Shown here one piece after another: positions 21,214 through 26,915 of a stretch of 33,557 bases of DNA. Every line of letters starts with the position of its first letter. Within the stretch, counting starts at the first letter, position 1. The DNA is from a virus (Duplodnaviria; Caudoviricetes). A program made the translations under genes and the position numbers. The notes beneath the pieces were generated by a model. It did not search any database and was not told the origin of the DNA. It saw nothing but the letters and a program-made list of their open reading frames with translations. The DNA is taken from the IMG/VR virus record IMGVR_UViG_3300032237_000089, positions 1-33,557 of that record; one strand, 5' to 3'.

Positions 21214-21435
21214 ATGAAGATTCAGCAGGCAGAGCAGCATTTTGGCAACCGGCGCAAATTGGCAGAGGCGTTGGGCATTACGAGCCAGGCAGTAAGCCAA
21301 TGGGCGAAGCGTGGGCAGATTCCCGAGGGGATGGCATACAAGCTCCAAGTCATCACGAACGGGGCGCTGGTGGTCAATCCTGTTGACTACATCCCCGTCG
21401 AGCAGATGGTTGCCGAGATCGTTCCGCAGCAATGA
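21214..21435 (+). CDS. cro: Cro/YdaS-like HTH regulator
   Basis: HFG...LAEALGITSQAVSQW...IP...AYKLQVITNGAL. Confidence 0.85.
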   Translation: MKIQQAEQHFGNRRKLAEALGITSQAVSQWAKRGQIPEGMAYKLQVITNGALVVNPVDYIPVEQMVAEIVPQQ

Positions 21436-22697
21436 AGTTTCTTTCGGTCTGTAGCGGCATTGAGGCAGCATCCTGCGCGTGGGATTGGGAGGCTGTCGCA
21501 TTCTCTGAGATTGAGAAGTTCCCCAGTCAAGTTTTGTCACATCATTACCCCGAAACCCCGAATTGGGGCGACATGACCAAGTTTAAGGAGTGGCCTGATG
21601 CAAATGTCGATGTTCTCGTCGGAGGAACGCCCTGTCAGTCTTTTTCAATCGCAGGACTTAGAAAAGGACTGGATGACCCGCGTGGCAACCTCATGCTCAC
21701 GTATCTTGCCATTGCTTCAAAGTATCGGCCCAAGTGGGTGGTTTGGGAGAACGTCCCCGGCGTGCTATCCAGTAACGGAGGACTCGACTTTGCCAGCTTC
21801 CTTCGAGGGTTGGGGGAATGCGGGTATGGGTTCGCCTACCGAGTTCTTGACGCTCAGTATTTCGGAGTTCCACAGCGCCGCCGACGTGTGTTCGTTGTCG
21901 GATGTCTTGGAGACTGGAGAAGTGCCGCAGCGGTTCTTTTTGAGCAGCACAGCCTGCAAGGGCATCTTGCGCCGAGCAGAAAAAAGGGGGAAAGTTTTAC
22001 CGAAACAGCTCGAAAAAGCGCTGCGAGCAGTCGATGGCCCGCAGATATAAGCAGCACCCTTGACACGACTTTTGGGACAAAACAAGGATTGGAAGATCAG
22101 CACGTCAATGCCGGTTGCCCAATGTTTGTATCTGCGGAAATGACAACGGTGCAAACTCTCAGAACAAGAAGACCCGGCGAAGGTGGAATGTCGCATGACC
22201 ATGAACATCTTGTTCCGACACTTTCACCGGCATTGAACACTTGCAGCGGCGCAAATCATGCACCGGACACAAAGGCTTACATTGTGCAGCCGACCTATTC
22301 TTTGCAAGGCGCAGGTGTTACTTCTCAAAATTCGCAGGGATCGGGTTGGAATGAGGAAGTTAGCTTTACGCTCAATCGCATGGATGTTCATGGGGTAGCA
22401 GTAGGCACAGATGTTTACAACGGGGCAATAACGGGCGATGTAGCAGCCACAATGGGAACGCCGGGAAGCAGCGTTAACGCCAGCGGGCCGACAGTCATGC
22501 AATCAATGGCGGTGCGCCGTCTGACCCCGATGGAATGCGAGCGACTCCAAGGCTTTCCTGACGGCTACACGGACATCAAGCTAAACGGCAAGCCTACCCC
22601 TGATGGCCCTCGATACAAGGCGCTAGGGAACTCTATGGCAGTCCCTGTAATGCGGTGGATTGGGCAGCGGATTGAGGCAGTTGACAGGATCAAATAA
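21432..22697 (+). CDS. DNA (cytosine-5) methyltransferase
   Basis: Motif I SVCSGIEA, IV GGTPCQSFS, VI WENVPG, VIII QRRRRVF, IX RRLTPMECERLQGFP, X YKALGNS. Confidence 0.95.
   Translation: MKFLSVCSGIEAASCAWDWEAVAFSEIEKFPSQVLSHHYPETPNWGDMTKFKEWPDANVDVLVGGTPCQSFSIAGLRKGLDDPRGNLMLTYLAIASKYRPKWVVWENVPGVLSSNGGLDFASFLRGLGECGYGFAYRVLDAQYFGVPQRRRRVFVVGCLGDWRSAAAVLFEQHSLQGHLAPSRKKGESFTETARKSAASSRWPADISSTLDTTFGTKQGLEDQHVNAGCPMFVSAEMTTVQTLRTRRPGEGGMSHDHEHLVPTLSPALNTCSGANHAPDTKAYIVQPTYSLQGAGVTSQNSQGSGWNEEVSFTLNRMDVHGVAVGTDVYNGAITGDVAATMGTPGSSVNASGPTVMQSMAVRRLTPMECERLQGFPDGYTDIKLNGKPTPDGPRYKALGNSMAVPVMRWIGQRIEAVDRIK
21598..22050 (+). CDS. Nested +1-frame ORF inside the methyltransferase
   Basis: 150 codons without a stop; AAGGAG (21585-90) 7 nt before ATG; SLSDVLE.G.VPQRFFLS..AC.GILRRAEKRGK. 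Confidence 0.6.
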   Translation: MQMSMFSSEERPVSLFQSQDLEKDWMTRVATSCSRILPLLQSIGPSGWFGRTSPACYPVTEDSTLPASFEGWGNAGMGSPTEFLTLSISEFHSAADVCSLSDVLETGEVPQRFFLSSTACKGILRRAEKRGKVLPKQLEKALRAVDGPQI

Positions 22698-22709
22698 TCG
22701 TGCCATTCT
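22681..22709 (+). promoter_or_regulatory. Putative promoter for the structured RNA leader
   Basis: TTGACA-N17-CATTCT with TG extended -10. Confidence 0.55.
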
Positions 22710-22767
22710 ATCTTTGTCCGAGAGAAAGATCGGCCGCGTGTGGCAACGCGAAAAGAGTTACCAGCAT

Positions 22768-22866
22768 GAACCCATCTACGCATGGGCTTCGGTTGTCGAG
22801 AGTTGTTGCTGGTCTCTCTCTCTGCCACCGCAGCCGCAAGCCCAGCCGTAGGTGGGTTTTTCTTTT
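22768..22866 (+). ncRNA. C4/CI-like antisense RNA hairpin ending in a U-tract
   Basis: AACCCATCTACG pairs with CGTAGGTGGGTT; inner TGGGCTT/AAGCCCA and CGGTTG/CAGCCG; loop segments complementary to flanking sequences. Confidence 0.6.
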
Positions 22867-23087
22867 GGACTACACCATGCTGGGCAATGAGAGCAACAGC
22901 GGCATGAGTGGAAAGCGCTACTGGTGGCTAAGGTTTGAAACAGCGCATAAAGAGGTGGCGAAGATAGTGCCTCTAACCGAAAGACTGTCGCGTGTCGCGG
23001 CTCCGAAGAGCAGCTACTAAAGGGCGCATAGGCTAAGGCTACGTGCGCTCACCAAAGAGCAGATAGCAGTAACTACTAGAGGAAGTT

Positions 23088-23270
23088 ATGACTAATAAAG
23101 AAAAGACGAGCGAATACTGGGTGACTGACAAAGAAGTGATGATCGAATATCTATTCCTAAAAGTTCGACAAGAAGATTGGCACGGCGTAGCCGATGCAGC
23201 AATGGACATAAGAGAAATGGAGGCAAAAAAATGTTCGACGAGTTCTATTCCAAGTTCCCCAAAAAAGTAG
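23088..23270 (+). CDS. Small conserved phage protein
   Basis: GAGGA RBS; YL..KV..EDWHGVADAAMDIRE.EA. Confidence 0.7.
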   Translation: MTNKEKTSEYWVTDKEVMIEYLFLKVRQEDWHGVADAAMDIREMEAKKCSTSSIPSSPKK

Positions 23271-23575
23271 CCCGCAAGGATGCACAGAAAGCATGGTCGC
23301 GGCTGACTGCCGAGCAGCAACAGAAAGCACTACAGGCGATTGATGATCATGTGCGTATGTGGACAGCCGAGGGGCGAGATAAACAGTTCATTCCTCATCC
23401 TGCAAGCTGGCTCAACGGCGAACGGTTCGACGATGAAATCTCAATGCCGGAGAAAAAGGTAGTGGCATGGTGGACAAGCGATCAGCTAACAATGGAGCAC
23501 GGTCGCAAGATCGGAGTGCCAGCGCGTCCGGGCGAGGACATGACGCAGTATCGCCTGCGGTTACGGGCAGCGTAA
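23231..23575 (+). CDS. Replication initiator/replisome organizer, C-terminal domain only
   Basis: GGAGG RBS; MFDEFYSKFPKKVARKDAQKAW...FIPHPASWLNGERFDDE. Confidence 0.7.
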   Translation: MFDEFYSKFPKKVARKDAQKAWSRLTAEQQQKALQAIDDHVRMWTAEGRDKQFIPHPASWLNGERFDDEISMPEKKVVAWWTSDQLTMEHGRKIGVPARPGEDMTQYRLRLRAA

Positions 23576-25794: not shown

Positions 25795-26160
25795 ATGGAT
25801 AAAGATGTCGCTGATTTCGTCTTAGTCCTCCTGCATAGCGGGACGAATGCTCATCTTATGCACCTAGCCGCAGAAGGGCCGGGTAGCTATGCCAAGCACG
25901 TCGCACTTGGCGAATACTACAAAGAGATCATCGAAACCACCGACCAGTTTGCCGAGGCGTATCAGGGCAAGTATGGTCGCATCAAAGGCTACGGTGAGGA
26001 CTATCACGTAGCCACAGACGCGATGCAGTATTTGACTGCTATGAAAGACTTTGTGGGCGAAGCCCGAGAGTTGTTGCCGCAAGATTCTGAACTGCAAAAC
26101 ATCGTTGACGAAATAGCTGATCTCATCAATACCACGTTGTATAAACTCACTCTGTCATAG
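25795..26160 (+). CDS. Ferritin/Dps-like four-helix protein (DUF5856-like)
   Basis: H..H....SYAKH.ALGEYY....D.FAEAYQGKYG, ELQNIVDEI..LIN.TLYKL. Confidence 0.75.
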   Translation: MDKDVADFVLVLLHSGTNAHLMHLAAEGPGSYAKHVALGEYYKEIIETTDQFAEAYQGKYGRIKGYGEDYHVATDAMQYLTAMKDFVGEARELLPQDSELQNIVDEIADLINTTLYKLTLS

Positions 26161-26424: not shown

Positions 26425-26613
26425 ATGGCTGTATACAACTGTAGCACCTGCACGTACTTTTTGCCGGGCAATGAGGTGATGGGGCAATGCCGACGTTTTC
26501 CTCAAAGCTATAACAAGCACCGCGTAGAGTGGTGTGGCGAATGGTGGGGGCAGGAAGAAAAGCGCAAGCCGGGTCGCCCGCGTAAAGAGCCTACGTTAGA
26601 GGTGGTCGTATGA
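26425..26613 (+). CDS. Small Cys-rich protein with AT-hook-like tail
   Basis: CSTCTYF..GQCRRFP..WCGEW, RKPGRPRK; AAGGAG RBS. Confidence 0.65.
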   Translation: MAVYNCSTCTYFLPGNEVMGQCRRFPQSYNKHRVEWCGEWWGQEEKRKPGRPRKEPTLEVVV

Positions 26614-26915
26614 ACTTCCGACCGCTGCAAGACAAGATTCTAGTGTTACCCGAAGCGCGCATTAAGTCAGATGTGATTCAGGTAATGGATAACGAAGCCG
26701 ACAGCCGTGGAACTGTAGTGGCTGTGGGTAGTGGGCAAAAGTACGATAACGGCAAGCAAGACCCAATGCCGTTAAAGGTGGGCGACAAGGTGTTTTTTGG
26801 TACTTATGGAAAATCTAGTGCTGACGATTACCTGCGTTACTCAGAGTATTTTGAAGATGACGTGCGATACCTTTTGATGAGTTGGAAGGATGTCGCGTTT
26901 GTAGAAGAAACTTAA
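26610..26915 (+). CDS. groES: Co-chaperonin GroES
   Basis: FRPLQDKILV, GTVVAVGSG, PLKVGDKVFF. Confidence 0.9.
   Translation: MNFRPLQDKILVLPEARIKSDVIQVMDNEADSRGTVVAVGSGQKYDNGKQDPMPLKVGDKVFFGTYGKSSADDYLRYSEYFEDDVRYLLMSWKDVAFVEET

Follow-up and report, generated by a model that had tools for sequence, protein, structure and literature searches.

In phage P4, a leader in the order seqA–CI RNA–seqC controls the replication genes through premature termination, the CI RNA being processed and timm being Rho-dependent, as outlined in sections of three sources (PMC4825925, PMC3632133, PMC10111431). The C4 RNA of phages P1 and P7 (RF01695) comprises three stem-loops, is excised by RNase P and blocks translation of an antirepressor at the ribosome site (portions of PMC5320573 and PMC12197685). 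In the attenuation systems of pT181 and pIP501 and in the RNA I/RNA II pair of ColE1, fully complementary antisense RNAs from the opposite strand count copies, through termination or a primer block, and define incompatibility (PMC5415839, in part). For Gifsy-1 IsrK, the short, terminated isoform works in trans on the read-through form of the same RNA and activates translation (from a passage of PMC4825925). Here we describe a leader RNA, predicted at about 150 bases, in front of the replication genes of a tailed phage. Comparison of its sequence across phages leads us to regard it as a real co-varying leader switch with two fast-changing recognition boxes, one that likely lets each lineage recognize its own RNA and shut off its replication genes without a repressor protein. 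It works like the P4 CI/seqA system, yet is no member of that family.

The window analysed here is a whole virus record of 33,557 bases with direct terminal repeats at its ends. It encodes terminase, portal, scaffold, capsid, holin and endolysin, a leftward operon with the recombination genes ERF and SSB, and a rightward operon that runs from a Cro-like gene through a DNA methylase, the leader element, a short initiator-like protein and NinB to a RecA-dependent nuclease. Searches of five near-complete genomes (the window and four relatives) returned neither a tyrosine integrase nor a CI-type (S24) peptidase in any of them, and the Cro-like gene is the sole HTH_3 match in the window, bearing out an earlier sequence-only reading of this DNA as a phage without a recognizable CI; the genomes of three relatives each carry one extra weak, sub-cut-off HTH_3 match elsewhere. 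A collection of 50,697 phage records held no DNA match for three queries, and in the closest record by protein, MW202674, the short initiator has no leader in front of it. GC skew marked no origin. Within the DNA methylase gene, a 150-codon open reading frame (ORF) in another frame (21598-22050, + strand) matches phrog_16143; we take it to be like the second subunit, encoded in overlap, of certain C5 methylases. Ahead of the packaging genes lie a gene for the co-chaperonin GroES (26610-26915) and one of phrog_858/DUF5856 (25795-26160). The features that the analysis draws on are as follows.

21214..21435, + strand: Cro-like gene (P22_Cro, E 4.5e-18), 5′ of the element and without a divergent CI gene
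22681..22709, + strand: predicted sigma70-type promoter; −35 TTGACA, 17-nt spacer, TG-extended weak −10
22718..22733, + strand: P1 hairpin, its loop rich in purines; hardly varies in the window's clade and is missing from a second clade
22735..22750, + strand: P2 hairpin, the loop of which (22740-22745) is target box a; from co-variation
22751..22768, + strand: linker with the hypervariable target box b (22760-22766); from co-variation and a shuffle test
22769..22858, + strand: long terminator-type hairpin of about 32 bp with apical loop b′ and bulge a′; from folding
22857..22866, + strand: U-tract directly after the long hairpin; from sequence
22873..22993, + strand: Betaproteobacteria-1 RNA (RF02932), 81.7 bits against a cut-off of 49.4, model positions 1-120 of 120
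22877..23020, + strand: 47-codon ORF, rejected as a conserved gene; no Pfam match
23231..23575, + strand: 114-amino-acid protein, the first replication gene past the gate; phrog_270 positions 179-256 of 383, E 3.7e-16

Every motif quoted in the sequence-only reading is present where it was placed. The putative promoter would start transcription near 22716; its −10 box matches the consensus at three of six positions, and a consensus promoter scan left it off its list, but it has a TG extension, and its TTGACA keeps a constant distance in 24 of 25 close variants while the spacer and upstream gene vary. The interval 22700-22870 folds at −69.5 kcal/mol (z −3.83; equalled by 0 of 200 shuffles). Its long hairpin had been described as branched; the predicted fold is instead an unbranched rod of about 32 bp with one 3′ bulge, a′ (TGCCAC, 22823-22828), and an apical loop, b′ (TGCTGGT, 22807-22813). 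The two arms can also fold on themselves (22771-22786 at −5.6 and 22838-22859 at −8.4 kcal/mol), and a terminator scan sees in the hairpin and U-tract the likeness of an ordinary terminator. Stem changes in P1 (loci L120, L162, L174 and L208), read from the alignment, preserve pairing. Four leader variants (L192, L221, L175 and L161) have a branched top on the long hairpin, and in the first two the P2 loop and its complement still vary jointly. A 106-codon frame from 22700 was rejected as a gene, its start lying within the −10 box and the variants differing in length by non-multiples of three, and an 18-mer of P1 gave 22 matches in bacterial genomes, all without the hairpin and judged to be chance.

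Pairing of boxes a and b with a′ and b′ in the window is worth −31.7 kcal/mol, against −14.6 ± 3.1 for shuffled leaders, none of 1,000 of which equalled it. The proposal that the apical region is complementary to the upstream GTGGCA loop and to ACCAGCA is thereby upheld, and this complementarity co-varies in relatives; the further suggestion that a CT run pairs with the P1 loop fails, as in the alignment that loop is constant while the CT run varies. The 114-amino-acid protein as query retrieved 37 loci at 89–99% identity, 34 of them with the leader and the remaining three ending too early on the upstream side. These loci, together with a pattern scan, gave 25 distinct complete close variants (L177 was omitted from alignment A1), among which box a occurs in 7 types and box b in 20. 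The longest Watson–Crick run averages 6.4 with the own partner against 4.4 with others for box a, and 7.6 against 4.3 for box b; box b forms at least 6 bp with its own b′ in 24 of the 25, compared with 17% of non-own combinations. In five variants with a backbone 97% identical, b is 58% and b′ 53% identical, a divergence on a near-constant backbone that, at the level of sequence, is as expected of specificity determinants. The anticipated co-variation of loop–target pairs thus holds for the upstream pairs a:a′ and b:b′; the downstream targets are invariant.

More distant elements were found by examining the DNA 5′ of Betaproteobacteria-1 in other phages. A long hairpin is present there in 64 of 97 loci and absent in 33; eight of the 64 were dropped by eye for want of the layout, which left 56 distinct elements with the same layout in other letters. 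When each hairpin was compared with all 56 leaders, its own ranked first for 30 and within the top three for 44, with six hairpins placing theirs only 13th to 41st. An alignment of 17 sequences of a second, AT-rich clade has 97.7% of its cells paired and compensatory changes in 21 of 44 pairs, and in its a:a′ helix, between the P2 loop and the bulge, pairing is 99% and 5 of the 6 pairs show compensatory changes; in slid controls, pairing falls to 30–57%. A pattern for this clade, with constant stem letters, a′ left open and the leader ignored, matched 120 loci of about 250 stored stretches; removal of one short match and 24 duplicates left 95, of which 89 have P2 and 90 a U-tract after the hairpin, the five exceptions to the latter also being without P2. 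Five matches without P2 or U-tract were left out of later counts, and the 22 loci of a first, mis-spaced pattern, none with a model match, were excluded. Among the 89 variants, a:a′ reaches at least 6 bp in 88, compared with 6% of non-cognate combinations, and b:b′ in 81, compared with 36%, a modest specificity; 21 a/a′ letter pairs and 59 a+b combinations occur. A covariance model of the second clade found no match in the window, so the clades are linked by layout and position rather than by demonstrated homology. Across more than 100 variants from uncultivated phages, patches and boxes change in step.

With co-varying loop–target pairing and no CI or integrase match, the idea of an RNA-only switch before the replication and nin genes gains support, and the assignment to the C4/CI family does not. 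The Rfam search proposed for that assignment gave no C4 match in the window at the gathering score or at E up to 10, nor in two sets of 20 related loci (for c4-a1b1 the table consulted gives no Rfam accession, and that model was perhaps outside the search), and the isrK model likewise gave no match in the window at either threshold. As in C4/CI RNAs, two exposed segments are complementary to a target lying 5′ of them within one transcript; the three-stem fold (P1, P2, P3) of C4 is replaced by a single rod with a bulge and apical loop, and neither a downstream target copy (seqC) nor a conserved small ORF over it was found. Judged against the parts of the P4 literature cited above, the resemblance lies in a target and antisense module carried in one leader, on the same strand and target first, with no need of a protein repressor. 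Here, unlike in P4, no kil/eta ORF is nested in the region, a hairpin of the intrinsic-terminator type is at once the antisense module, and the element sits in a full 33.6-kb tailed phage rather than a satellite. With P1/P7 C4, as far as those sources describe it, the leader shares two short exposed segments that read two boxes, changes in which make for phage-specific recognition; it differs in its single rod, one target set and the lack of any antirepressor seen here. Its proposed role, copy counting by RNA, recalls the cited accounts of pT181, pIP501 and ColE1, except that the counter here would be the terminated leader itself, acting through two 6–11-nt patches; near the leader, a scan that also missed the sense promoter listed no minus-strand promoter, and there is a weak minus-strand terminator-like site at 22747-22733. 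The proposed trans action of a terminated isoform on its own read-through transcript is that reported for IsrK in the passage cited, with no isrK match here.

Two catalogued RNAs come close to this locus. DNAVirus_4653, described in part of PMC10690425 (Fremin et al.) as a palindromic 124-nt RNA with 43 sequences, mostly from freshwater phages, and scored as a non-terminator, lies directly upstream of YdaU/DUF1376 genes, as does the leader in loci L049, L050 and L063; that paper reports three candidates upstream of such genes. Compared by description only, DNAVirus_4653 may be this RNA. The other, Betaproteobacteria-1, has 22873-22993 as a member, but this is the downstream neighbour of the switch; the main text of PMC5737381, as far as consulted, does not name it. 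The literature searched contains no description of the leader or its mechanism; the supplement of PMC5737381 and the sequence files of PMC10690425 lay outside the comparison and may bear on novelty.

We propose, from sequence and modelling, that the leader is a self-sensing antisense attenuator in which the terminated leader RNA binds nascent copies in trans and forces them to terminate, a reading to which we assign a probability of roughly 0.55. One short RNA would then be target, antisense regulator and terminator together. In the nascent transcript, folding predicts that a and b pair first with a′ and b′ in cis, trapping the 5′ terminator arm in a small hairpin and permitting read-through. 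Terminated transcripts would fold into the long rod, exposing a′ and b′ while their own boxes are not both reachable, and, as they accumulate, would bind a and b of new transcripts in trans; this would block the cis trap and cause termination, producing more of the same RNA. The replication operon would thereby come under negative feedback, a loop that counts genomes sharing an a/b type, with copy-number control and the exclusion of kin as consequences and with escape for phages bearing other a/b letters.

Geometry and folding speak to several of these steps. In 15 chosen variants, box b lies 1–7 nt from the stem base, and stems measure 26–37 bp; because b is near the base and b′ at the tip, b:b′ pairing and the full rod should be mutually exclusive in cis, and a finished rod should be unable to pair its own b with b′, which places that pairing in another conformer or between molecules. 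Folding of the growing transcript predicts a conformer in which the leader is paired to a′/b′ and the 5′ terminator arm is in its own small hairpin, and alternative terminator and read-through folds are predicted for the leader of the initiator gene. Barriers and cis pairing were computed for 24 hand-picked variants. Early cis pairing reaches at least 10 bp in 18 of these and falls short of it in six, all from the AT-rich group. The mean refolding barrier to the rod is 21.2 kcal/mol with the target free against 7.3 with it blocked, and is higher when free in 21 of 24; for the window, blocking leaves a barrier of 22.1, still high, against 29.4 free. At equilibrium, 23 of 24 fold as the rod, so read-through would depend on a kinetic trap, as estimated without pseudoknots. 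Two-site trans binding, with accessibility taken into account, was best with the own leader type in 14 of the 15 variants chosen for it. Sequencing runs, RNA libraries among them, compared through contigs only, contained at most 15% of the query words, which speaks neither for nor against expression or habitat.

That the complementarity is incidental to a plain terminator or small RNA is very improbable: the hairpin and U-tract have an ordinary terminator look, but two separate pairings co-vary in two clades, which largely refutes it, and no shuffle of 1,000 equals the pairing of the window. Of greater weight is a purely cis kinetic attenuator, possible though in our view doubtful, in which a/b fixes the read-through fraction, or a protein or polymerase pausing tips it with P1 as the binding site, and no trans RNA takes part. 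Cis folding would suffice for both the co-variation and the two conformers, and the near-invariance of P1 in the window's clade fits a protein site. The existence of a second clade without P1 goes against such a site, and b and b′ diverge in blocks while the backbone stays 97% identical, which, together with the 59 a+b combinations, is hard to explain without selection for new specificities.

The sign of the switch and the form of its regulator bear on two further readings. It is rather unlikely that the rod is cut out by a host RNase as a stable CI-like RNA that maintains a truly immune, plasmid-like prophage state in the manner of P4, even though the genome has no integrase or CI match and the order resembles that of P4, seqA then CI before replication genes (from the portion of PMC4825925 cited); there is no seqC-like downstream target, no C4 or isrK match and no three-stem fold, and a search of 401 bacterial genomes from a single order, a weak constraint, found the second-clade pattern in none. 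We consider it more unlikely still that the sign is reversed, as in IsrK, such that transcription by default ends at the U-tract in either conformer, or the read-through RNA is inactive, and trans pairing activates, giving a positive feedback and a lysis-favouring sensor of multiplicity. When a and b are paired in cis, the 3′ arm can retain a hairpin before the U-tract (−8.4 kcal/mol in the window, with means of −6.8 for 25 close and −3.9 for 90 second-clade variants), so both forms might terminate, and short IsrK trans-activates its own read-through mRNA (PMC4825925, in part). Against this, the barrier to the strong rod is lower with a/b blocked than with it free in 21 of 24 variants, and the switched region contains no ribosome site or conserved ORF.

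Should negative feedback by the terminated leader prove correct, this would be the most compact RNA-based phage self-recognition described, with target, antisense and terminator in one RNA of about 120–150 nt and no processing step, counter-promoter or protein required. It is also common, with about 250 stored stretches for the pattern of the second clade, in phages whose gene content looks lytic, and one may then ask why such phages bear fast-diversifying recognition codes. The variants constitute a natural library of orthogonal RNA switches that is directly testable with reporters.

The region behind the U-tract had been read as holding further targets, AGCAACA and GGTGGC, beneath a small ORF comparable to icd and kil. 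Both motifs are present in 19 of 19 variants regardless of the loop letters, downstream pairing in the window is at the level of chance (−22.6 against a shuffled mean of −23.6; equalled by 182 of 300 shuffles) and just 3 of 54 hairpins put their own downstream region in first place. The ORF does exist in the window, but its ATG is found in only 10 of 21 variants, its frame changes in four and its length ranges from 47 to 60 codons. The proposed targets are invariant parts of Betaproteobacteria-1, the sole match in an Rfam search of the window and one that the sequence-only reading missed; we conclude that this RNA is a separate, exchangeable module, the first after the gate, rather than a target. 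An initial pattern for it found nothing. A second a+b target was found in none of five near-complete relatives, and two extra a+b matches in the window were discarded, as they lie in late genes without a counterpart in relatives and the non-cognate rate is 0.23 per genome.

The U-tract is followed by either a DUF1376 initiator gene or a non-coding cassette. In L049, L050 and L063, the DUF1376 gene comes directly after it, without Betaproteobacteria-1. Elsewhere the slot, examined over 22873-23087 in the window and over 260 nt in L255-L374, is filled by one of at least five unrelated non-coding cassettes, of which Betaproteobacteria-1 alone is in Rfam (20 loci covering the other types gave no match); cassettes in 87 AT-rich loci fall into groups of 31, 19 (Betaproteobacteria-1), 19, 12, 5 (G-rich) and 1. 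In the largest group (22 sequences), 20 of 36 predicted pairs co-vary, and it looks like an uncatalogued structured RNA; another co-varies in 4 of 18 pairs (12 sequences). The leader is retained while the upstream gene and downstream replication module vary, and many Betaproteobacteria-1 members lack the leader as many leaders lack Betaproteobacteria-1. These observations give the orphan Rfam motif a context and indicate several uncatalogued structured cassettes. In L001-L037, variable cargo genes, often methylase-like, are inserted on both sides, in the interval from cro to the promoter and in that from the cassette to the initiator, and promoter, leader and cassette are kept together.

The 114-amino-acid protein matches only the C-terminal part of phage replication initiators. 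Its homologues of 122–127 residues match from their first residues and occur in the fetched flank of 20 of 90 loci, with two more cut off by the locus end; a single-sequence search of low sensitivity, covering the DNA behind the cassettes and six whole genomes, returned no DUF1376 domain. Cassette-bearing phages were seen to have the C-terminal initiator domain only (114–127 amino acids), and the cassette-less L049, L050 and L063 full DUF1376 initiators with short repeats. The cassette and the N-terminal domain may therefore be alternatives, and we hypothesize that the cassette substitutes for the origin-binding part of the initiator. More speculatively, and with only a modest chance of being right, widespread tailed phages that lack integrase and CI could run a ColE1-like, RNA-only replication control, in which the terminated leader is a kin-specific genome counter of dozens of orthogonal types that also gates a non-coding cassette, structured and exchangeable (Betaproteobacteria-1 or one of at least four unrelated types), itself an RNA-activated or RNA-primed origin that replaces the missing N-terminal origin-binding domain. 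On this view they might be maintained in the manner of plasmids, as replicons whose incompatibility groups are defined by RNA.

Three minor observations concern the cassettes themselves. Those of L286, L291, L298, L299 and L356, and of L017 and L027, contain a long G-run with T-rich flanks, which we take to resemble R-loop-forming primer sites. In L119, L143, L180 and L194, Betaproteobacteria-1 occurs without the leader, by eye right after a putative primase-domain ORF. Finally, conservation across 32 loci extends about 70 nt beyond the end of the Rfam model (22994-23062), and the Betaproteobacteria-1 RNA may, on these alignments, be longer than RF02932.
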